DNA from: Rhodospirillales bacterium
Lineage (GTDB): Bacteria; Pseudomonadota; Alphaproteobacteria; Bin95
DNA length: 64,000 bases
Assembly (NCBI GenBank): GCA_038143065.1
Contig: JAYQLI010000035.1
Coordinates: 1,664,894-1,728,893, forward strand
Direction: 5' to 3'
The stretch's first letter is position 1; each line of letters starts with the position of its first letter. Position numbers and translations under genes: made by a program. Under the pieces are notes generated by a model. It had not been told where the DNA came from and did not search any database. It saw nothing but the letters and a program-made list of their open reading frames with translations. Positions 10,015 to 21,864 of this stretch are shown piece after piece.

Positions 10015-11088
10015 TTACTTAAGCTTAGCTGTCAGGCCTGCCATCTTACCAAGGGTCGCATTCCACTCATCGACGCACTTCTGGGTTCCGCAACGCTTCG
10101 CCCAACGTGCAACAACGACGTTCTCAACAACATCCTTGAGCTTATCTTTGTCAGCACCCTTGATCTCGATTGGGGTCATGTTGCCTGGCTTGCCAAGATC
10201 ACAAGGACCTTGAGCATTACAGTCCATGCCCCGCTGATCGTTAACGCGGGTTGCCTTCCACATTGCATCGTAAAGAGGTGACATTTGGTCGGACATAAGC
10301 TTCTGCCCCTCAGCCCCAAGGCTATTCCAAGCTTTGTTGTTCATAGCCAAGAATGAGGATGCATATCCGAGACGAACCCGAATGTTGTGGGTAACAACCT
10401 GCCACCACTTTGCATTGTAGGCAGGCAACGTGCCTGTCACGCCGCAGTCGGCGACACCCTTTTGAAGGGCAGGTACAACTTCCGCAAACGCGATGGTTAC
10501 AGCTGAACCACCAACGCCCTCGATGACATCACCAAGAGTGGTTGAATAGGTGCGGATTTTCTTACCCTTGAGGTCAGCAAGCGACACATTGGTGTTGCTG
10601 CGGTCGCCCAAGTTGCACCAGAATTGCTGACTTGGCCATGCATACAAGAGGAGAAGCTTTGAATTGTATTTCTCATTGAACTCACGAGCGATAATAGGCT
10701 CATAAGCGTTCAGAGCCTTCTCATAAGTTGCTACGTCCTGGAATACGCCTGCAAGGTCAGCGCCCTCAATTGCGGGCGAGTCCTGAGCGACATAACCCGT
10801 AACACCGTGAACGGCGTCATATGTGCCAATTTTGAGAAGCTTCATAATTTCGAAACCAGACAAACCAACTTCGGTTTGAGACTTCGCATTAGCGGTGTAC
10901 TTACCGCCAGAAACCTTTGGAAGGGTCTCATTCCAGAAAGGGCCTTCACGCTCTTTCCAGTGATCAAGGAAGCCCCAGGTACCAACGACCGTGAACTTCT
11001 TTGCCTTTAATTCGGCTTGGGCAGCGCCCCCACCGACGGCGAGGCCGAGTGCAACAGCACCTGCCATAGCCAGTTTTAATGCTTTCAT
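10015..11088 (-). CDS. dctP: TRAP transporter periplasmic substrate-binding protein DctP
   Basis: Signal peptide (AAQA), DLKGKKIR and FAEVVPALQKGVADC motifs. Confidence 0.93.
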   Translation of the reverse strand: MKALKLAMAGAVALGLAVGGGAAQAELKAKKFTVVGTWGFLDHWKEREGPFWNETLPKVSGGKYTANAKSQTEVGLSGFEIMKLLKIGTYDAVHGVTGYVAQDSPAIEGADLAGVFQDVATYEKALNAYEPIIAREFNEKYNSKLLLLYAWPSQQFWCNLGDRSNTNVSLADLKGKKIRTYSTTLGDVIEGVGGSAVTIAFAEVVPALQKGVADCGVTGTLPAYNAKWWQVVTHNIRVRLGYASSFLAMNNKAWNSLGAEGQKLMSDQMSPLYDAMWKATRVNDQRGMDCNAQGPCDLGKPGNMTPIEIKGADKDKLKDVVENVVVARWAKRCGTQKCVDEWNATLGKMAGLTAKLK

Positions 11089-11171: not shown

Positions 11172-12007
11172 TTACGCAGACCAGCGCATGCTGACTGCAT
11201 CACTTAATCCGTCCCCAATCAGCATCGCACCGGGGGGTGTGTGATGCAAATAGGTGGACGGGCATTTTGCAGGACGAGCTGAGGAGTAACCCCGCAAGCC
11301 CAAAAAACAGGTACTTCACCTTCTCGAATTTCAACCGCATCACCCCAATCAGGTGCCATCACATCATTGATACCAATGGCACTTGGATCGCCAATGTGCA
11401 GTGGGGCTCCATGAGCAGCCTTGAAGCGTGATGTAATTTCAATAGCCTTCAATGCGTCTGATGGTTTCATAGGGCGCATTGAACATACTGTATTGCCAGT
11501 GAATGCGCCAACTGGCCGACATGGGATATTGGTAGCGTACATTGGGACAGTTGCCCCTGTCTCGATATGCCTGAGGCCAATGCCGGCTTTCATAAGGGCA
11601 TCCTCAAAACTAAAGGAACAGCCAAGCACAAATCCTACATAATCATCCTGCCAAAGGGCACTAATATCAGACACTGTCTCCGATAATTCACCATCTCTAT
11701 AAACATTGTAGCTTGGTGCATCCGTGCGAATATCAACATCATCACCCATGTCGGGAAGCATGGGATCACCAGGGGCAGTCATTGCCACTACAGGGCAGGG
11801 CTTTGGGTTTCGATGGCAGAAAATTGCAAATTCAAGGGCCAAATCCTTAGGCAAAACTGCCAAGTTTCCTTGCAGGCGGCCAAGTGCCATCCCAGCAGTA
11901 TGACTAGTATGGATCCCCGCACGGATCAGACGCCGTGCCGCTACAGGCGAAACGCTTGGGTCCTCTGCGCTGTGCTGCGACAATTGAATTGGCTTGGCGA
12001 CGCTCAT
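11172..12007 (-). CDS. DUF1445 / D-glutamate cyclase-like putative hydro-lyase, frameshifted near 11235
   Basis: FCHRNPKPCP, DIRTDAPSY, GCSFSFE, FWACGVTPQ. Restoring one base in the C-run gives ITHxPGAMLIGD...WSA with TAA at 11172. Confidence 0.88.
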
Positions 12008-13156: not shown

Positions 13157-13471
13157 ATGATTGTTGACGTGCGCTGCTACAGCATAACACCACGTAAGAT
13201 GAAAACTTACCTTGAGACCTTCGAAAAGTATGCATTGCCCGTTCAGGAAAGAGCAGGAATGAACTTGCTAGGCTATTTTGTTCATAGCGTCGGAAGCCTC
13301 AATAAAGTTACGCACCTATGGGGCTTCAACAGCCTGGCACATATGGAAGCAGTGAGAGCAAAACGTGACGCCGACCCTGCATGGGCCGAATATCTTGGAA
13401 AAACAGAGGGAATGGTGCAGGCGCAGGAAAACAGCATAACTACTCCAGCACCCTTCTCGCCTATTAAGTAA
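13157..13471 (+). CDS. NIPSNAP family protein
   Basis: 104 aa. DVRCYSITP, GSLNKVTHLWGF, DPAW and PAPFSP match the NIPSNAP pattern. Confidence 0.88.
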   Translation: MIVDVRCYSITPRKMKTYLETFEKYALPVQERAGMNLLGYFVHSVGSLNKVTHLWGFNSLAHMEAVRAKRDADPAWAEYLGKTEGMVQAQENSITTPAPFSPIK

Positions 13472-13555
13472 GCTGAGGGCCTCCACTCAAGACTTACTTG
13501 AACTCGGTAACGGGGATGCCTTCCAGTTACCATATGACTAGGAAGGCTACCTCCC

Positions 13556-14841
13556 CTGCCTCGCATTACTGAAAAAACTGCACCTCCAGGCGTTCCGTTC
13601 AATCTACCTTTCTATTACGGATGGGCCATCGTAGCGTGCGCCTTTGCAACAATGGCGGTCGGCGTAAATGCGCGCACGGCTTTCTCCCTTTTATATCCAG
13701 CTATCTTGGCGGAATTTAATTGGGCTCGCGGAGAAACAGCCGGAGCTTTCGCCTTAGGTTTTATTTTCGCTGCCGCAATGGGGCCCTTTACGGGCGCACT
13801 ACTGACACGCTTTGGGCCGCGCGTCGTCATGCCTCTTGGGTCAGTGATGATGGCGGCAGGCATCGCTTCAACGACGTGGATCTCTCAACCCTGGATGCTG
13901 TATCCAAGCTTTGGAATGCTGGTTGTCGGCGGCAGCACCATTCTGGGTTATATCGGCGACAGCGCTACACTGCCGCTGTGGTTTCAGAAAAGACGCGGCC
14001 TTGCCGTAGGAATAGCTTTTGCTGGTGTTGGCGTTGGCGCAATGGTCGTGCTGCCATTAACTTCTTGGATCATTCAGGGAAGTGGATGGCGAGATGCGTG
14101 CTGGGCCATTGCAGCTATAATTATTTTCTCTTAATTCCCCTCAACCTAATCGTACAGCGCCGAAGTCCCGAAGACCTGGGTCTCTTGCCAGATGGAGCAA
14201 ACTCGGAAGCAGTTAAACAAGGGGAAAAACCGAAACCATCCCCAGCGGGCCCTTCACTGCGCGACGCTCTCAAAATGCGAACATTTTGGTTCTTCGCCGC
14301 ATCGACCTTTGGAATGCTTTGGTGCTGGTATGCAGTCCAAGTACACCAAACGCAGTACCTTTTGGATAAAGGTTTTGATCCAGCAATTGCAACCTTGGCA
14401 CTCTCCCTTGTCAGTGTCTTTGGCGTAGCGGGCCAAATCAATGGCGGTTGGATGTCAGACAAATTAGGACGTGAAGGCGCGTGGACTATCGGCTTGCTAG
14501 GGTTTGCAGGCTGCTATGCCGCTTTATTTCTGATGAGCTCAAATACCTCCCCTCTAATTCTGTGGGGAATGGTAATCATGCAGGGCTTAATTGGTTATGG
14601 AGTGACCGCTATCTTTGCCAGCGCTCCAGCTGATGTCTTTCAGGGCAGGAGTTTCTCAACAATCTTTGGAACATTGAGTATTTTCTCATCCCTTGGCGGG
14701 GGAATTGGTCCTTACGTAACCGGTTTAATTTATGACCTAGATGGCGACTACTCTCGCGCATTCCTGATTTGCATTGGGTGGTGCGCCGTAAGCATCCTTA
14801 CAATGTGGCTCGCCGCACCAAGACGGTACAGACGCCGCTAG
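13556..14841 (+). CDS. MFS transporter (OFA/monocarboxylate-like), frameshifted at T-run ~14124-14127
   Basis: FYYGWAIV upstream of 13652 in the same frame, RFGPR, WFQKRRGLAVGIAFAGVG, then PEDLGLLPDG and SDKLGRE in ORF 13720..14841. The start (CTG 13556) is uncertain. Confidence 0.85.
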
Positions 14842-14846
14842 TACCT

Positions 14847-16043
14847 CTAAATCCCCGAGAGGCTTTTAATGGCATCAGCGCCGTAACCAAGGCCAGATAG
14901 AATTTCTTCATTATGTTGACCGGGTTGAGGTGGCGGTGAAGTTAAGCGGCCACCACCATGCTCAAGTCGAAAACCCGTACTCGCTAACGTCATTGGACCA
15001 AAACGCGTTTCAACAGTTTGCAGTATGTCACGATGCTGAAGCTGAGGATGTTTAACAATCTCATCGATCGTCCAAATCGATGCGCATGGCGCACCCCCAT
15101 CTGTTAAACGCTTTTCCCACCCGACAGCATCATCACGAGCTAGAACGGTTTCGATCTCCATCCTGAGAGCCTGCTCATTTGAAAGTCGATCATCCCAAGT
15201 CTTGAAGCGGGGATCCTCGTTGAGACGCTCTAATCCAAGTGTCTTTAATAGCGCTTCATATTGTCGGTCATTATTGACTGCAAGAAGCAACCAACCATGC
15301 TTTACGCGAAACAAGTTGGCTGTTGGACGACGGCTAACTGCCTGATTTCCCATTTGGCGCTGTTTGTGGCCAGCGACCGTATATTCCGCAACCGCTGGCG
15401 AAAGAAAAGCTAATGTAGCATCCAGCATTGCCACATCCACCATCTGACCTTTTCCAGTATGCGTACGCTGATAAAGAGCACTAGCTACTGCAAAAGCTGC
15501 CGTCATTCCGCCAATAGCATCACACACGGCAAAGCCTGCCCGCGTCGGCCCCATTTCCTCGTGGCCGGTCAAAGACATTATGCCACTCATTGCCTGGATC
15601 TTACCGTCATATGCGGCCGTCTGACTGTCAGGGCCGTTATGGCCAAAGCCGGAAACGGCGCAGTAGATAATCTTCGGATTGATTTGCTTAAGGGCATCAT
15701 AGCCCAAACCCAAACGATCCATCACGCCAGGTCTAAAATTCTCCATGACTACATCAGTTTCAGCAATAAGTTTTTGGCAAACCTCAATGGCTGTTGGATT
15801 TTTTAGATCGAGGGTCAAATTTCTTTTATTGGCATTAACGCAGGCCCACATCGGAGCCATACCCCTCTCCGCCCAATCCGGCGCAGGGGGCGAGAAACGC
15901 ATATCTTCACCGCCAGGTTTCTCGACTTTAATTACATCTGCACCCAGCAATGCAAGCTGATAACTTCCAAAGGGACCAGCAAATACTTGAGTGAAGTCTA
16001 GTATCTTGATCCCATCAAAGGGACGAGCACCTGGCGCCGTCAT
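14847..16043 (-). CDS. Class III CoA-transferase (CaiB/BaiF family)
   Basis: LDFTQVFAGP, GADVIKVE, NANKRNL, ENFRPG, catalytic Asp in VCDAIGG, C-terminal PPQPGQHNEEIL. Confidence 0.95.
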   Translation of the reverse strand: MTAPGARPFDGIKILDFTQVFAGPFGSYQLALLGADVIKVEKPGGEDMRFSPPAPDWAERGMAPMWACVNANKRNLTLDLKNPTAIEVCQKLIAETDVVMENFRPGVMDRLGLGYDALKQINPKIIYCAVSGFGHNGPDSQTAAYDGKIQAMSGIMSLTGHEEMGPTRAGFAVCDAIGGMTAAFAVASALYQRTHTGKGQMVDVAMLDATLAFLSPAVAEYTVAGHKQRQMGNQAVSRRPTANLFRVKHGWLLLAVNNDRQYEALLKTLGLERLNEDPRFKTWDDRLSNEQALRMEIETVLARDDAVGWEKRLTDGGAPCASIWTIDEIVKHPQLQHRDILQTVETRFGPMTLASTGFRLEHGGGRLTSPPPQPGQHNEEILSGLGYGADAIKSLSGI

Positions 16044-16972
16044 GCAGCATCTCCTTCACGTTTTGCTTTTGCTATTTCCTTTCCCCTATCAAACTCCGCT
16101 TTCAAACGAATGATTTCCTTAGGAGAAAGCTTCTCCACGTTAGAATAATCCTCCTTCCAAGTAGGATTTTCAGACCAACGAATAGGGTTCTGCCAAGTGG
16201 TCATAGGACCAGGTGCATTAGCCAAAAGGTCGAGTGCATAACCAAGGGTTAAATACTGACTTTCCTGATCGTGCGGCCGTCCACTGGGGTTCCCGAGTGG
16301 AAAATCACTGAACAGAAAACGGGGAGCCCCAACGTATTCAACAATATCTTTCGCACAGCCCATAATGACTGTTGGTATTCCTGCTTGCTCTAAAGCTCGT
16401 GCAATCAGACACACGGTCTGATGGCAAACGGGTCAATTAGCAGCTAAGACGGCAACATCCGCCTTATCTTCTTGCGTCCGTCTAACGATTTCTTGGGCAT
16501 CTACCTCGATGGTAACACGGTGACTTCTGTTGGTCGGAGCTCCATGGAACCGAGGTGCCACCTCGCCAATGCGTCCCTCTTCTGCCATTCGCCTCAACAT
16601 AGGCAGCGGGAACCAAACTCCTGGGTCTTCCTGGCTGGTGTGTTTCCGATCTATACCGATGTGAGAAATTCTTAGATCGTGGTCTTCATCACTAGCGCCA
16701 GAGTAGACTTCATAGAATTTAGCCTTTGAGTTGTATGCACTCCACGGGCCCTGATCTCCAGCCTCGGGATTGTAAGGAGCGGCCGTTGTCACCAAAGTAA
16801 CGCGGCTTTCCTGCAAAGGCTTCTTTAGAGGAGAGAACGGGGCATCAGCATAGTGACCCCACTCATAAGGCTTCCCATAACCAAGAGTTACATAGTAGTC
16901 GCGGATCCGTTGCAAGTATCGGATCGGCTGGTCATCAGCTAGCGCAAAGCCGTAAGGGTTGTCATCAGACAT
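16040..16972 (-). CDS. PrdB/GrdB-family (glycine/proline reductase component B-like) selenoprotein, Sec at UGA 16433-16435, 310 aa, U180
   Basis: ORFs 16433..17188 and 16040..16414 are one frame joined across a single TGA: ADVAVLAAN-U-PVCHQTVCLIARALEQAGIPTV...FPLGNPSGRPHD. This is the UxxC motif of PrdB/GrdB. ATG 16972 has a strong GAGGAGG RBS. Confidence 0.85.
16400..16435 (-). promoter_or_regulatory. Bacterial SECIS-like hairpin downstream of the in-frame UGA
   Basis: mRNA: UGA CCCGUU UGC C AUCAGAC [CGUGU] GUCUGAU U GCA. There is a perfect 7-bp upper stem plus a 3-bp lower stem. The loop begins after 17 nt and has G-U at loop positions 2-3. Confidence 0.75.
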
Positions 16973-17084
16973 TCCAACCTCCTCTCTTTTCATTTGAGAC
17001 CCTACAGCATGTAAAAGTAACTGGAAAAGTGTTTGCTGCTGTGCTTCGATTAAATTTATAACCTCAAAACTGGAGGAAAAGGCC

Positions 17085-17939
17085 ATGACATATCGGCATA
17101 TCGAAGCAACTCCGATCTCAGGTGCGCTCGGCGCTCTAATCACTCGCGCTGATCTCTCCCAACTAAATGACGATGTATTCCAGGACATTCATCAGGCATT
17201 TCTGGAATACCAGGTCATATTTTTTCGTGACCAAGATATCACGCCTGAGCAGCAAATTGACTTGGCACGACGCTTTGGGGAAATCCATCACCACCCCTAC
17301 ATGAAGGGTATGGACGAGTACCCTGACATCTTGGAAATCCTGAAGGAGCCAGGTGACAGTTATACCTTTGGAGCCGCTTGGCACTCAGACCAAATGTTCA
17401 ATCCTTCCCCCGCAAAAGCCACCATGCTTTATGCCAAGGAAACACCCTCAGTTGGCGGGGATACTATGTTCTCGAGCATGTACAAAGCCTATGACGGCCT
17501 GTCGGACGCAATGCGCGATATGCTTAAAACGGTTAAAACGTTCAACGTAGGCGATCGATTTAAAAACATGGGCGGAGGCGCCCGATCAGAGCGTTATGCA
17601 GGCAATCCAAAAATGGCGAATAAGGTTCGCGATCCTGGCAATCTGATTACGGAGTCTCATCACCCACTTTTTAGGACCCATCCCGAAACAGGACGTAAAG
17701 CTCTCTACATAGGCAGTCACACGCAAGGTCTAGAGGGAATGCGGAGTGAAGAAGCAGACCCTATCGTTGACTACCTTAGAACGCATTCAATTAGGCCAGA
17801 GTACTTATGTCGTTTCCAATGGAAACCCGGTTCTTTGGCGCTTTGGGACAATAGGTGCGTCCAACATTACGCGGTTCCCGACTACAATGAACGTCGGCGG
17901 ATGCACAGGATTACTATTGCAGGTGACGTACCAGTCTAG
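17085..17939 (+). CDS. TauD/TfdA family Fe(II)/2-oxoglutarate dioxygenase
   Basis: IFFRDQ, WHSD (HxD), GGDTMF, HPETGRKALY, WDNRCVQH, RMHRITI. Confidence 0.95.
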   Translation: MTYRHIEATPISGALGALITRADLSQLNDDVFQDIHQAFLEYQVIFFRDQDITPEQQIDLARRFGEIHHHPYMKGMDEYPDILEILKEPGDSYTFGAAWHSDQMFNPSPAKATMLYAKETPSVGGDTMFSSMYKAYDGLSDAMRDMLKTVKTFNVGDRFKNMGGGARSERYAGNPKMANKVRDPGNLITESHHPLFRTHPETGRKALYIGSHTQGLEGMRSEEADPIVDYLRTHSIRPEYLCRFQWKPGSLALWDNRCVQHYAVPDYNERRRMHRITIAGDVPV

Positions 17940-17944
17940 GGCTT

Positions 17945-19675
17945 TTAATTTCCTCTGAGAGCAGCCGTAGCTTTTGCATCTATTTTGCCATCAACATCTA
18001 CAACGACTTTGTAGTGGTCTAGCGCAGCCTCAACGGTAACTAGACCATTGGCTACGTCTCGAGATATAGCGGTGAGGTCACGAGCAGTTGCCTCACCAAG
18101 GCCTCCACCGCCAGGCATCTGCAGAACAAGTCGTTCGCCACTTGGAACAGTCTGTCGTCCCTTACCTTTCAGCACCTGCCCAGATTGCAAACCTATCGTG
18201 CCCACCGCTCCTGAGCCGCCACCATCCCTACCTCTTGGTGGATGAATCACCCGATCAAACATGCTGGAAATGGCAAAAGGCGCACCTTGCGCGTGCTCTA
18301 TTTCCATTATCTGACCAACTCCACCGCGATACTGGCCAGCTCCGCCTGAGTCTGGACGGTATTCCTTCTTCCAGAAAACCAAGGGGGCAATGGTCTCATT
18401 GACCTCTACAGGCGTATTACGCACACCAGACGGAAAGGCAGTTGCATCTAGGCCATCCTTTTCTGGCCTAGCCCCAGCTCCACCCGTATGAAAAACATTC
18501 ATCGCAAAAGGGCGGGCTTGGCCATAATCTCCATCAACAACACCGTGCCCCCCCATAAGAACAGGGTTCCAAAGACACGAAGTGCCCTCCGCAGGGCTCC
18601 TTTCTGGCGCTATCTGATGCAAACACCCCAATACAACATCCGGCAACATCTGCCCTGTCACATGACGGGCGGTAACAGCTGCGGGGTGAGGCGCATTCAA
18701 TATACATCCAGAGGGCGCCGTTATCTTTACTGCCTCCAGAGACCCCGCATTGTTAGGCACGCGGTTACCCACAACACAACGGACACCAAAGCTTGCATAG
18801 GCCTCAGTGTAGGTCATTGGCACGTTAATCCCATAGCCAGAGACAGGTGAAGTGCCGCTAAAATCTACCTCTATCGTATCATCTGTGATCGTCATTGTGG
18901 CAACGATATCAACATGTTTTTCGTAGCCATCTATACGCATAGAATTTTTGTAAACGCCTTTTGGCAACTTTGCGATTTCGTCCGCCATTCCCTTTCGGCT
19001 TGAAGTGATAATGTGTTCAGCGAGAGGCTCAATCGAGGCCATCTCAAACTCATCCATCATCGCAACTAGCCTGCGCGAGCCAACATCATTGCAGGCAACT
19101 AATGAGTAAAGATCTCCCTCGACTTCGACAGGATTTCTATTGTTGGCGGCTATAATATCGAGGACCGTGCGGTTCATACGACCACCCTCAGCCAGCCTCA
19201 TAATTGGGATGTTGATACCCTCTTCATAAACTTGTCGACCATCAGCACCAAAACCCCTGCCACCAATGTCTGCAACGTGCGTAGTACAGGCAAAGAGCGC
19301 CACAATTTCACCATTACGCCATGTGGGGGTTACGACTGTAAAATCATTCAGGTGCCCTGTGCCCAACCAAGGGTCATTGGTAAGGAAAACGTCACCTTCT
19401 GACATCGTCTCCAGAGGAAATTTTTCTATGAAGTGACGGACCGAAGCGGCCATAGCATTCACATGACCAGGCGTACCCGTGACAGCCTGAGCTAACATCC
19501 GCCCGCTCGGATCATAAACCCCAGCAGAGATGTCACCCGCTTCACGTGCGGAAGTTGAGAAAGCTGTTCGAATTAGCGTCTGCGCCTGTTCTTCAACAAC
19601 TGATAGAAGGCGGTTCCATTGGATCTGCATTCCAATACGGTCAAGAACATTAGTTTTAGAGTGAGAACCTGACAT
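17945..19675 (-). CDS. Hydantoinase B / 5-oxoprolinase subunit (HyuB family)
   Basis: RTAFSTSAREAGD, NDPWLGTGHLND, HVADIGG, PDSGGAGQYRGG, PGGGGLG. Confidence 0.95.
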   Translation of the reverse strand: MSGSHSKTNVLDRIGMQIQWNRLLSVVEEQAQTLIRTAFSTSAREAGDISAGVYDPSGRMLAQAVTGTPGHVNAMAASVRHFIEKFPLETMSEGDVFLTNDPWLGTGHLNDFTVVTPTWRNGEIVALFACTTHVADIGGRGFGADGRQVYEEGINIPIMRLAEGGRMNRTVLDIIAANNRNPVEVEGDLYSLVACNDVGSRRLVAMMDEFEMASIEPLAEHIITSSRKGMADEIAKLPKGVYKNSMRIDGYEKHVDIVATMTITDDTIEVDFSGTSPVSGYGINVPMTYTEAYASFGVRCVVGNRVPNNAGSLEAVKITAPSGCILNAPHPAAVTARHVTGQMLPDVVLGCLHQIAPERSPAEGTSCLWNPVLMGGHGVVDGDYGQARPFAMNVFHTGGAGARPEKDGLDATAFPSGVRNTPVEVNETIAPLVFWKKEYRPDSGGAGQYRGGVGQIMEIEHAQGAPFAISSMFDRVIHPPRGRDGGGSGAVGTIGLQSGQVLKGKGRQTVPSGERLVLQMPGGGGLGEATARDLTAISRDVANGLVTVEAALDHYKVVVDVDGKIDAKATAALRGN

Positions 19676-21774
19676 TAATTCGTCTCCCCCTTGGCTGTCA
19701 TAACAATGTAATCACGCTCATCGATGTGAGCTTGAAAAGTTGAAGCAACGACAGTCGTTGTCTGAGGTTCAACAATGAGGGCGGGGCCAGAGATCCGAGA
19801 ACCAGGCTTCAACTCAAATCTATCGAAAAGACCAGCGGTCACAAATTCTTGCTGCGTCGCGTCGAACAGCTCCCTCGTCTGAGTTGGCGCCGTAAAATCA
19901 GCATCAAGGACCACCTCTTCCAAACTCTTCGAACTCGAAGACTTCCCAGTAGATACAGTCAAAGTCCAGCTAAGAATTTCTGGTTGCATTCCAGGAACAG
20001 TCTGTCCGTAAAGTGCGGTGTAGGCCTCATTAAAACTCTCAAGAAGATTTTGATTATCTTCTTGAACCAAAGGCCTATCTGGTAGCGGCACAGTAATCTC
20101 ATGCCCCTGACCCACATACCGCATGTAGGCGAGGCGCGTTTCTGTAAGTTTAGCTCCAACAGCTCCCGCCTCGACAACAGCCCTAGCCTCACGGCTCATA
20201 TCCTCTAAAAGTCGGTTAGCTCCATTCGCATCAAAACCATCGAGCCTCGTGTAACGGCTTCTAACTACTTCATATGAAATTGGTGCACGAAGAAAACCAA
20301 CGGCAGATCCCACACCCGCTCCACTCGGAACAATTACTCGATTAAGTCCGAGCTTTTCCGCAAGCCTTGAAGCGTGCAAAGGGGCCGCGCCTCCGAAGGC
20401 AATCATTGTCCGTTCAGCAATATCTTTGCCCCATTCAATCGCATGAACGCGCGCCGCATTAGCCATGTTTTCGTCGACGATTTCAGCAATAGCAAAGGCG
20501 GCTAAGGGTGTAGGCATGTTCAGCGGCCTACCAACTTCGGCATGGATAGCATCTCCCGCCTTTTCTGGAACCAAACGAACATTGCCACCAGCAAAGCGCT
20601 CAGGAGAAATTTTTCCCAAGGTGACATCGGCATCCGTTACAGATGGTTGTGTTCCTCCGAGGTCATAGCATGCCGGTCCAGGATGCGAGCCTGCACTTTC
20701 AGGTCCTACTTCAAGACGCCCCATGCCATCGACATGCGCCAAACTTCCTCCACCCGCACCAATCTCAACCATCTCAATGGCAGGAATGCGTACTGGCAAG
20801 CCACTACCTTTTAGATTTCGATAGGCACGTGCAACTTCAAAAGTACGCGTCGAAAGTGGCTGCCCATCGTCAATTAGACAGATCTTTGCTGTAGTTCCTC
20901 CCATGTCATAGGAAACAACACGGTCAAGACCAGCCTCACCAGCCACCTCTGCCGCAAGAATTGCTCCTCCAGCCGGACCCGACTCGACCAACCTGATTGG
21001 AAAACGAATTGCATTTTCTAACGTCGTCAAACCACCGCCCGACGTCATAAGCAAAAAGGGACAATCAAAACCCATGTCCCTTAATCGGGCATCTAGAGCG
21101 GTAAGATAGGCAGCCATTTTGGGCTGGACATATGCATTAGCGCAGGTTGTGGACTGACGCTCGTACTCACGGATCTCTGGACAAACTTCCGAGGAAATCG
21201 AGACAGGCAAATCGGGAAAGGCCGATTTAACAATTTCACGCACCCGTTCCTCATGAGCAGGGTTCGCGTAAGCGTGCAGTAAGCCGACGGCGAGTGCTTC
21301 GATGTGATACTTTTCAATTAATGGAAGAACTGCTCGGACGCTTTCCTCATCCAACTCAATTAATGGATCACCTGCCACATTCATCCGCTCTCGTACTGGC
21401 CAACGCAGCTCTCTCGGAGCCAGTGGCAAAGGACGATCAATCATGATGTCGTACTGCTCGAAACGGTTTTCTAGCGCCATTTCCACAGCATCACGGTGGC
21501 CTTGAGTAGTTAGGAGAGCAATTTTTGCACCTTTACGCTCAATAATGGCATTTGTGGCCAGTGTGGTTCCGTGGATTAGTAGGCCAACAGCACCAGGAGT
21601 GATATTCGCTTCAGCCAACGCCTTTGCAACGCCATCTAAAACGCCCTCCTCTGGGGCGGATGGAGTGGTTAGAACCTTGGCCGTTGTTTGATTACTGCCA
21701 TGCTGCAAGACCACATCAGTAAAAGTTCCACCTATATCAACTGCAAGACGGACGTCACTTTTAGCCGTTGCCAT
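19675..21774 (-). CDS. Hydantoinase A / 5-oxoprolinase ATP-binding subunit (HyuA family)
   Basis: DIGGTFTD, HGTTLATNAI, ESGPAGG, DMGGTTAK, IGAGGGS, FGGAAPLH. One-base overlap with hyuB. Confidence 0.95.
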   Translation of the reverse strand: MATAKSDVRLAVDIGGTFTDVVLQHGSNQTTAKVLTTPSAPEEGVLDGVAKALAEANITPGAVGLLIHGTTLATNAIIERKGAKIALLTTQGHRDAVEMALENRFEQYDIMIDRPLPLAPRELRWPVRERMNVAGDPLIELDEESVRAVLPLIEKYHIEALAVGLLHAYANPAHEERVREIVKSAFPDLPVSISSEVCPEIREYERQSTTCANAYVQPKMAAYLTALDARLRDMGFDCPFLLMTSGGGLTTLENAIRFPIRLVESGPAGGAILAAEVAGEAGLDRVVSYDMGGTTAKICLIDDGQPLSTRTFEVARAYRNLKGSGLPVRIPAIEMVEIGAGGGSLAHVDGMGRLEVGPESAGSHPGPACYDLGGTQPSVTDADVTLGKISPERFAGGNVRLVPEKAGDAIHAEVGRPLNMPTPLAAFAIAEIVDENMANAARVHAIEWGKDIAERTMIAFGGAAPLHASRLAEKLGLNRVIVPSGAGVGSAVGFLRAPISYEVVRSRYTRLDGFDANGANRLLEDMSREARAVVEAGAVGAKLTETRLAYMRYVGQGHEITVPLPDRPLVQEDNQNLLESFNEAYTALYGQTVPGMQPEILSWTLTVSTGKSSSSKSLEEVVLDADFTAPTQTRELFDATQQEFVTAGLFDRFELKPGSRISGPALIVEPQTTTVVASTFQAHIDERDYIVMTAKGETN

Positions 21775-21864
21775 TCCGCACACCTTCCCTCAGAAGAAAT
21801 TCCGCGCCAGACTGTCGCCTGATGCGCATTGGAGCGCAAGTTTTTGTAGACGAAAAAGGTTAAC

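Follow-up and report, generated by a model that had tools for sequence, protein, structure and literature searches.

A PrdB/GrdB-superfamily selenoprotein of an alphaproteobacterium, predicted to stand alone and possibly linked to acyl activation

Genes and features at the locus

We analysed a stretch of 64,000 nucleotides from a Rhodospirillales bacterium (assembly GCA_038143065.1, contig JAYQLI010000035.1), hereafter the window, which carries on its reverse strand a gene for a probable selenoprotein related to PrdB of D-proline reductase and GrdB of glycine reductase (Table 1). When TGA is read as selenocysteine (Sec, U), the frame comprises 310 codons plus a terminal stop and contains exactly one internal TGA, U180, in the context DVAVLAAN-U-PVCHQTVCLIARALEQAGIPTV, with FSDFPLGNP further downstream. 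With translation table 11, the same frame gives two open reading frames (ORFs), 16433..17188 (251 aa) and 16040..16414 (124 aa). An earlier examination of the DNA letters, the sequence-only reading, had proposed that these two fragments form one frame joined by a single TGA within a UxxC motif, and the sequence is indeed as it was written there. The strong ribosome-binding site announced for the start codon is also present, with a 5-nt spacer. Since homologs of 308-322 aa align to the selenoprotein from residues 1-7 on, we placed the start at ATG 16972 and not at the upstream ATG 17188. At the other end, the terminal TGA (16042-16040) shares the tetranucleotide ATGA with the ATG (16043-16041) of the next gene, which encodes a family III CoA-transferase.

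Standard gene callers cut the Sec form of this gene in two, as the sequence-only reading had supposed; this is shown by the fragments found in databases, which either end near residue 177-183 or start with MCHQTVSL, the GTG located two codons past the TGA being taken as a start. The annotation can thus be corrected not only here, since public databases hold C-terminal halves that start with MCHQTVSL.

The same reading had also mentioned five other in-frame stops in the window that resembled errors, and this count was not borne out. In a scan for single stops lying between two open stretches of 90 codons or more, we detected seven in the window, including the Sec TGA; the six others are located at 2133, 9293, 33224, 35856, 36618 and 49952. 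Four of them (2133, 9293, 36618 and 49952) are followed by a Met within 1-5 codons, as observed at ordinary junctions between genes in the same frame. Stop 33224 has a Met at the fourth codon after it, and stop 35856 has none in the next 11 codons.

Table 1. Features of the selenoprotein locus, in window positions
Feature	Position	Strand	Evidence
Stand-alone PrdB/GrdB-superfamily selenoprotein gene (predicted), 310 residues, stop codon included	16040..16972	-	Frame, Pfam GRDB, NCBIfam PrdB, orthologs
UGA read as selenocysteine U180 (predicted), motif U-P-V-C-H-Q-T	16433..16435	-	30/30 ortholog loci; 55 TGA/55 Cys
Shine-Dalgarno sequence AGGAGG	16978..16983	-	5 nt before ATG 16972-16970
Hairpin of the selenocysteine insertion sequence (SECIS) type, predicted	16397..16429	-	RNAalifold; pairing 91.7%; core Sec 45/45 vs Cys 1/55
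SECIS upper stem	16421-16416 with 16410-16405	-	RNAalifold
SECIS lower stem	16426-16424 with 16402-16400	-	RNAalifold
Family III CoA-transferase gene, ATGA overlap with the selenoprotein gene	14847..16043	-	Pfam CoA_transf_3, E 9.6e-116
TauD/TfdA-family dioxygenase gene, divergent	17085..17939	+	Pfam TauD, E 4.9e-67; NCBIfam taurine dioxygenase 229.9 bits, cut-off 313

Conservation of the TGA and distribution of Sec and Cys forms

The joined protein was searched in the six frames of 61 genomes, namely the source genome and 60 relatives. Matches were obtained in 42 of these genomes, including all 36 of the same family, where the orthologs are 54-96% identical, and all but two among the matches listed hold exactly one TGA. 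At the 30 best ortholog loci (54-100% identity, three genera and two other families), the TGA falls each time in one column of the invariant U-P-V-C-H-Q-T, which is far beyond chance.

The codon is also kept in material assembled by others. A contig from a public run of another study (X5) spans 15900-16940 with 2 differences and retains the TGA, and a contig from a run of a further study (X8) spans 16359-17055 with 5 differences, none of them at 16433-16435. The concern of the sequence-only reading that the TGA might be an error is thereby all but removed. In addition, a contig from an RNA library (X15), derived from a strain about 95% identical, extends across the TGA and on into the CoA-transferase gene; it shows 32 differences and, among the 25 listed, none is at the Sec codon. 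The gene is held by contigs of two RNA libraries, X15 and X18, where the presence of a contig does not prove transcription and where the gaps of X18 are uninformative.

The tabulation of TGA against Cys codons in this column, proposed in the sequence-only reading, was carried out over 110 loci, that is the 30 ortholog loci of the relatives and 80 loci from named species genomes. We observed 55 TGA and 55 Cys codons (TGC/TGT); the 80 named loci account for 25 TGA and 55 TGC/TGT, and the 30 orthologs all have TGA. The TGA forms among the named loci come mostly from metagenome-assembled genomes labelled Alphaproteobacteria, Hyphomicrobiaceae or Hyphomicrobiales, Rhizobiales and Stellaceae, and the Cys forms include those of Bradyrhizobium, Hyphomicrobium, Variovorax, Ramlibacter and Casimicrobiaceae. 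A word-indexed homolog search, in which 8000 candidates were scored, all with E <= 0.001, gave Cys in this column (C-P-V-C-H-Q) for each of the 120 best full-length homologs of these candidates (63-69% identity). The source databases name the homologs 'D-proline reductase (dithiol) PrdB' or 'glycine/betaine/sarcosine/D-proline reductase family selenoprotein B'.

G045 has two copies of the same subfamily, one with the TGA (64% identity) and one stop-free (62%), at G045:C1:720491-721399 and G045:C14:7282-8193. In G019, the ortholog is split close to the Sec codon, and its two parts lie about 7 kb from each other (C1:803737-804276, query 6-185, and 796186-796584, query 178-310), which seems to be due to an insertion or a rearranged region.

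A hairpin downstream of the UGA

Applied without guidance to 60 nt of the 30 orthologs, RNAalifold predicted a hairpin in which the lower stem begins 7 nt past the UGA and the upper stem about 11 nt past it, closed by a loop of 5 nt (16415-16411), CGUGU in the source sequence and CGUGA in most orthologs. With the partners as predicted, 91.7% of the cells pair, compared with 15-41% when the partners are slid. Pair 21-37 covaries (CG 14, UA 11, UG 1, unpaired 3).

We compared the hairpin region between 45 unique Sec-form and 55 unique Cys-form segments, taken from the 110 loci. The 5-bp core of the SECIS is fully paired in all 45 Sec forms and in only one of the 55 Cys forms. The codons behave in the same way. 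In Sec forms, +5 CAG, +6 ACC and +7 GTG are each fixed in 45 of 45 segments, +8 AGT is found in 42 and +9 CTG in 44, whereas the same positions are free in Cys forms, with for instance GTC 18 times, GTG 3 times and others at +7, and AGC 27 times, AGT twice and others at +8. This contrast shows an apparent selection on the SECIS that is tied to the UGA, acting only where the UGA is present. The DNA from the UGA through the hairpin is also far more conserved than the rest of the gene, as judged from contigs of other organisms in X8 and X18, which match the window only over 32-39 nt (16397/16404..16435), covering the UGA and the hairpin. The SECIS-like hairpin indicated in the sequence-only reading is therefore real and specific to Sec forms.

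Two other approaches were not informative. The mean minimum free energy over the 36 nt past the codon (-15.3 kcal/mol for Sec forms and -13.2 kcal/mol for Cys forms) did not separate the two groups, because the sequence is GC-rich. A search of Rfam returned no family for the hairpin, only a chance match to a microRNA (E 7.9).

The SECIS of the E. coli fdhF type is a hairpin located directly past the UGA, inside the coding sequence, with an apical loop that contains G and U. The hairpin described here resembles it by its position in the coding sequence, by its upper stem-loop about 11 nt past the UGA and by the G and U of its loop, and differs from it in sequence.

These data allow the status of the TGA to be judged. 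It could represent a sequencing or assembly error, or a true nonsense mutation in a Cys-type gene, so that the locus would be a pseudogene or would encode Cys; Cys forms of the PrdB-like family are very common, the assembly shows homopolymer indels elsewhere (in selA, see below) and its contamination amounts to 5.53%. Such an origin would not explain why separate assemblies of orthologs 54-96% identical have the TGA in the same column, 30 times out of 30, why contigs of two other studies keep it, or why the hairpin and the fixed synonymous sites occur only together with it. We give this explanation practically no credit.

Selenocysteine machinery of the source genome

The genome was searched for the genes required for Sec insertion, a check also put forward in the sequence-only reading. 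We found selA (496 bits), selB (435 bits), selD (280 bits) and tRNA-Sec (71.5 bits), all over the curated cut-offs and all on the contig of the window (C35); ARAGORN calls the tRNA as tRNA-SeC with anticodon tca.

The selA gene (G000:C35:594751-596061; locus L001 1444-2844, reverse strand) contains two 1-bp indels relative to the 98.8%-identical gene of G008, both at poly-A runs and 83 nt apart. The frame-shifted stretch between them has an in-frame TAA, and the ORF is 429 aa long instead of about 463, ending 34 codons early; selA is intact in four relatives. If selA were truly broken, as this premature TAA would suggest, the UGA would be a stop in the source strain, which would make a 179-aa fragment, and the gene would work in the relatives. 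The two indels affect A-runs 83 nt from each other, and the rest of the gene is 98.8% identical to an ortholog that is intact; this is the pattern of assembly errors, and they look like homopolymer errors. Moreover, this genome has kept intact the selenoprotein gene with its SECIS and one or more further Sec-type paralogs, and we consider a loss of selA function to be very improbable.

We are thus nearly certain, from the comparison of sequences, that the gene is a genuine selenoprotein gene, the UGA of which would be recoded by SelB and tRNA-Sec under the guidance of the SECIS.

Relationship to PrdB and GrdB

The protein matches Pfam GRDB (PF07355) with 26.8 bits for a cut-off of 22 (E 4e-6), residues 47-177 aligning with positions 217-345 of the 347 of the model, that is its last third. 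The best NCBIfam match is PrdB (TIGR04483), with 82.1 bits against a cut-off of 300, over residues 45-251 and including the Sec column. The selenoprotein-B subfamily model (TIGR01918) gives 58.7 bits against 65.45, and the other GrdB-type models (TIGR01917, NF040794 and NF040795) give 50-58 bits against 602-800. Finally, U180 falls opposite U186 (U-P-N-C) in the alignment with P0301, a 441-aa paralog of the same genome (34% identity over 221 residues), which itself scores 110.7 bits against the PrdB cut-off of 300 and stays under the GrdB cut-offs as well (G000:C35:2092632-2093273; locus L051 724-2046, reverse strand). Because the GRDB cut-off is passed, the PrdB and selenoprotein-B cut-offs are missed and U180 aligns with U186, we assign the predicted protein to the GrdB/PrdB superfamily and outside the PrdB and GrdB equivalogs. 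Its membership in this superfamily agrees with what the sequence-only reading had recognised.

Several other members of the superfamily were noticed in these genomes. The P0301 gene is convergent with an ORF that, by look only, is a candidate enoyl-CoA hydratase. A third paralog of the source genome (G000:C35:2334979-2335834) appears as two separate matches (query 119-302 and 9-95) with one TGA each, and may be frameshifted or carry two TGAs. Most of the genomes G001-G036 give 3 to 5 matches each, nearly all with one TGA, in identity bands of 54-96%, 40-48%, 32-37% and, in forms of 400-470 aa, 31-38%. It looks as if Sec-type PrdB-like genes had expanded in the alphaproteobacterial family of the source genome.

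The sequence-only reading had described the protein as stand-alone. A search for PF09338 (PrdA/GrdE) and PF04723 (GrdA) in the 61 genomes, homologs of the PrdB-like gene being present in 42 of them, found neither family in any of the 61; as the search had no positive control, both families are to be considered 'not found' and not 'absent'. No PF09338 or PF04723 gene was seen in the neighbourhoods scanned either. These results are consistent with the term 'stand-alone'.

The protein could be a true PrdB, or GrdB, GrdF or GrdH, of a canonical Stickland-type reductase, associated with a pyruvoyl partner and, in the case of the Grd enzymes, also with selenoprotein A. PrdB is indeed the best NCBIfam match, database homologs bear the name 'D-proline reductase (dithiol) PrdB', and the Sec position of UxxC is common to the paralog alignment and to Table 2 of PMC2398784, in the part of that survey available. 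The scores of 82.1 bits for a PrdB cut-off of 300 and of 58.7 bits for 65.45 for selenoprotein B, the hosts, which are Alpha- and Betaproteobacteria such as Bradyrhizobium and Variovorax, and the failure to find PF09338 and PF04723 in the 61 genomes (the search being without positive control) or in the neighbourhoods examined all argue against such a subunit, which we regard as highly improbable. Very probably, the protein is instead a stand-alone superfamily member of about 310 aa, neither the PrdB of a D-proline reductase nor the GrdB of a glycine reductase.

The comparison with the known proteins goes in the same direction. With clostridial PrdB (TIGR04483), the PrdB-like protein has in common the UxxC redox pair and, presumably, the selenolate nucleophile. 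It is longer by about 45 residues at the N-terminus and 60 at the C-terminus, and differs further by its proteobacterial hosts and by its partner gene, which encodes a CoA-transferase, a PrdA-type pyruvoyl proprotein being not found. It keeps only UxxC, unlike GrdB, for which the accessible text of PMC13188914 gives UxxCxxC. The protein is homologous to the C-terminal half of GrdB, GrdF and GrdH, with Sec in the same region, and lacks their N-terminal ~215 residues.

CoA-transferase neighbours and domain fusions

From the ATGA overlap, the family III CoA-transferase gene is predicted to be translationally coupled to the selenoprotein gene. The neighbour counts given here, for the 30 loci of the relatives and the 80 named loci, are tblastn counts; gene calls made in this DNA of 61-71% GC with a filter on codon-position GC miss the target in some loci, and the tallies based on them are approximate. 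The CoA-transferase is the most conserved neighbour and the sole one that persists across lineages, adjoining 39 of the 110 loci (9 of the 30 relatives' loci and 30 of the 80 named loci; 9 of these 80 have too little downstream DNA for a judgement). The 30 named loci with a CoA-transferase comprise 5 Sec forms and 25 Cys forms, and all but one of these CoA-transferases start 398-561 nt past the Sec/Cys codon, mostly with 55-68% identity.

A different cluster is observed in genus g3, with genes for an NHL propeller, an SGL-type lactonase-like protein, a glyoxalase, an AMP-binding ligase, an acyltransferase and a flavin reductase, and also for an enoyl-CoA hydratase or a copper amine oxidase.

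Fusions were tallied in the 30 homologs longer than 545 aa. An AMP-binding ligase is fused at the N-terminus in 19 of them; a fructosamine-kinase/APH-type kinase and CoA_transf_3 are found at the C-terminus in 4 and 3, respectively. NHL, LysR, Cpn60 and the case with no Pfam family on record each correspond to one long homolog. The motif C-P-V-C-H-Q is kept in 27 of the 30, and we confirmed the fusion domains for P0124, P0125 and P0282.

Other neighbours were considered as conserved partners and rejected. The TauD gene adjoins 10 of the 30 relatives' loci, all of genus g1, and 3 of the 80 named loci, and is thus genus-specific. Hydantoinase A/B was rejected, HyuB being present at 3 of the 30 loci, all from close kin, and so were the D-glutamate cyclase, TRAP and MFS genes. 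The neighbours in Bradyrhizobium (Sua5, FAD oxidase, GNAT, NUDIX, SRAP, DUF2385, TctC, SLT, AzlC and others) outline no pathway.

A possible function

Stickland enzymes rely on a pyruvoyl subunit, PrdA or GrdE, to present and activate the substrate. Based on the CoA-transferase pairing through ATGA, the ligase and enoyl-CoA hydratase genes of the g3 cluster and the fusions with AMP-binding and CoA_transf_3 domains, we think it somewhat probable that the PrdB-like protein is linked to acyl activation.

An AlphaFold model of the protein (predicted local distance difference test 79.8, predicted template modelling score 0.84) places U180 between a strand (173-177) and a helix (183-196), in a predicted Rossmann-like alpha/beta domain. 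Sequence searches of the Protein Data Bank (PDB) returned no relative (one match at E 0.4), and Foldseek against the PDB gave nothing at E <= 0.001. The best match of a VIA-align fold search had Z 9.7 (root-mean-square deviation 2.6, 133 aligned), the folds retrieved being of the LacI/periplasmic-binding and short-chain dehydrogenase/reductase types. Many invariant polar residues are located far from UxxC, for example T62, T63, D73-G75, H104, D108, R109, H111, T147-S150 and S222-N228.

The catalysis, the reductant, the substrate class and the physical contact with the CoA-transferase in the following scheme are what we infer from these data. U180 and C183, just before the start of the helix in the Rossmann-like domain, would form a selenol/thiol redox pair. 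The selenolate would attack the carbon next to a carbonyl and displace a leaving group, as in PrdB and GrdB; C183 would then attack the selenium, so that the reduced product would be released and an Se-S bond left, which a thioredoxin-type system would re-reduce. The coupled family III CoA-transferase would activate the substrate to a CoA thioester or an acyl-adenylate; in other lineages, an AMP-forming ligase, either fused to the protein or encoded near it, would do so. This thioester or adenylate would stand in for the pyruvoyl subunit. The specific chemistry, a reductive cleavage of the C-alpha-heteroatom bond of an acyl-CoA, is a tentative proposal that we hold to be doubtful.

The protein may instead be a general selenol/thiol-disulfide oxidoreductase, reducing a disulfide, a CoA-mixed disulfide or a partner enzyme with no cleavage of a C-heteroatom bond. 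In the model, the UxxC pair would lie just before the start of a helix, as in thioredoxin-type proteins; the genomic contexts are varied, and Table 3 of PMC1088965, in the part of the article available, classes the PrdB family with thiol-based redox proteins. However, the invariant polar residues far from UxxC suggest a substrate pocket, the homologs of the protein include enzymes that work through a covalent Se-C intermediate, and the ligase and kinase fusions fit a small-molecule substrate, so that a general oxidoreductase appears to us unlikely. Considered as a whole, the explanation that we prefer, with some confidence, combines a Sec-encoding gene, a stand-alone reductase of the superfamily and a partner in acyl activation.

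Several observations weigh against this combined explanation. Concerning the SECIS, the fold of the single sequence barely exceeds that of shuffled sequences (z -1.97; 4 of 200 as good) and pairs differently, a single pair of the stem covaries, and several stem bases are also fixed by the invariant H-Q-T. The selA indels, if real, could impair Sec insertion in the source strain. The searches for PrdA/GrdE and GrdA matched in no control genome, and the fold searches returned generic alpha/beta matches, which are uninformative on the active site. As for acyl activation, 71 of the 110 loci lack the CoA-transferase, among them most of those of genus g3 and a second context in Bradyrhizobium; the kinase-fused (4/30) and NHL-fused (1/30) long homologs indicate that CoA is not the sole theme; and the three CoA-transferase fusions, which are single-member clusters, could be frameshift artefacts.

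PrdB-like selenoproteins in published surveys

Sec in this family is not new, since it has been catalogued since 2005. The accessible part of the Sargasso Sea survey of that year lists 'proline reductase PrdB', with UXXC and 42 Sec sequences, as the third most abundant selenoprotein family (PMC1088965). In the part available of the Global Ocean Sampling (GOS) survey of 2008, PrdB (pfam07355, UxxC) has 235 Sec sequences and 110 Cys homologs and is among the top seven selenoprotein families (PMC2398784). The occurrence of PrdB-like selenoproteins in marine metagenomes, mentioned in the sequence-only reading, is thus published, and as an abundant one. The protein studied here resembles this marine 'PrdB' by UxxC, by pfam07355 and by the coexistence of Sec and Cys forms, the two being matched by description and not by sequence. 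The marine family is reported from marine and estuarine bacteria, and both surveys, in the same parts, file it as the PrdB of D-proline reductase (PMC1088965, PMC2398784). We found in these parts no discussion of missing partner subunits, CoA-transferase neighbours or ligase fusions. In the available text of the reviews of 2022 and 2026, PrdB is treated only as a clostridial enzyme (PMC9312934, PMC13188914).

A literature search, the scope of which excluded subscription journals and supplements, yielded no paper on orphan PrdB/GrdB homologs or on the link with CoA-transferases, and the texts available to it included none on a role in aerobic Proteobacteria without the other components of the Stickland reductases. 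What may be new is the connection with acyl activation, together with its functional implications, and the remaining interest of the gene lies in its unexplained function and in this lead. The lead is testable; in both Alpha- and Betaproteobacteria, the pairing with a CoA-transferase gene and the fusions with acyl-AMP/CoA ligases are found repeatedly, also in Bradyrhizobium, which can be cultured and has the Cys form.

It is conceivable, though we would not count on it, that the abundant marine and soil proteins named 'PrdB', with Sec or Cys, are not proline reductases and would form a class of their own, of selenol/thiol reductases that stand alone and are pyruvoyl-independent, cleaving a C-heteroatom bond next to a carbonyl once the substrate has been activated to a CoA thioester, an acyl-adenylate or a phosphate ester. 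The role of PrdA/GrdE in presenting the substrate would then fall to the CoA-transferase, ligase or kinase. If true, this would provide a function for one of the commonest selenoprotein families of the ocean.

Other genes in the vicinity

Hydantoinase/oxoprolinase A and B genes are located at 17945-21783 on the reverse strand; their nearest model is caprolactamase, well below its cut-off, and among the relatives only the two closest have HyuB beside the selenoprotein gene. Genes for a D-glutamate cyclase (11219-12007) and a TRAP solute-binding protein (10015-11088) are also nearby on the reverse strand. Together with the hydantoinase genes, they look like a catabolic island for lactams or amino acids.

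An MFS transporter ORF occupies 13720-14841 within the region 13157-14841 of the forward strand. It matches Pfam MFS_1 only from profile position 179 on and has two shorter ORFs just upstream, and the transporter gene looks truncated or frameshifted.

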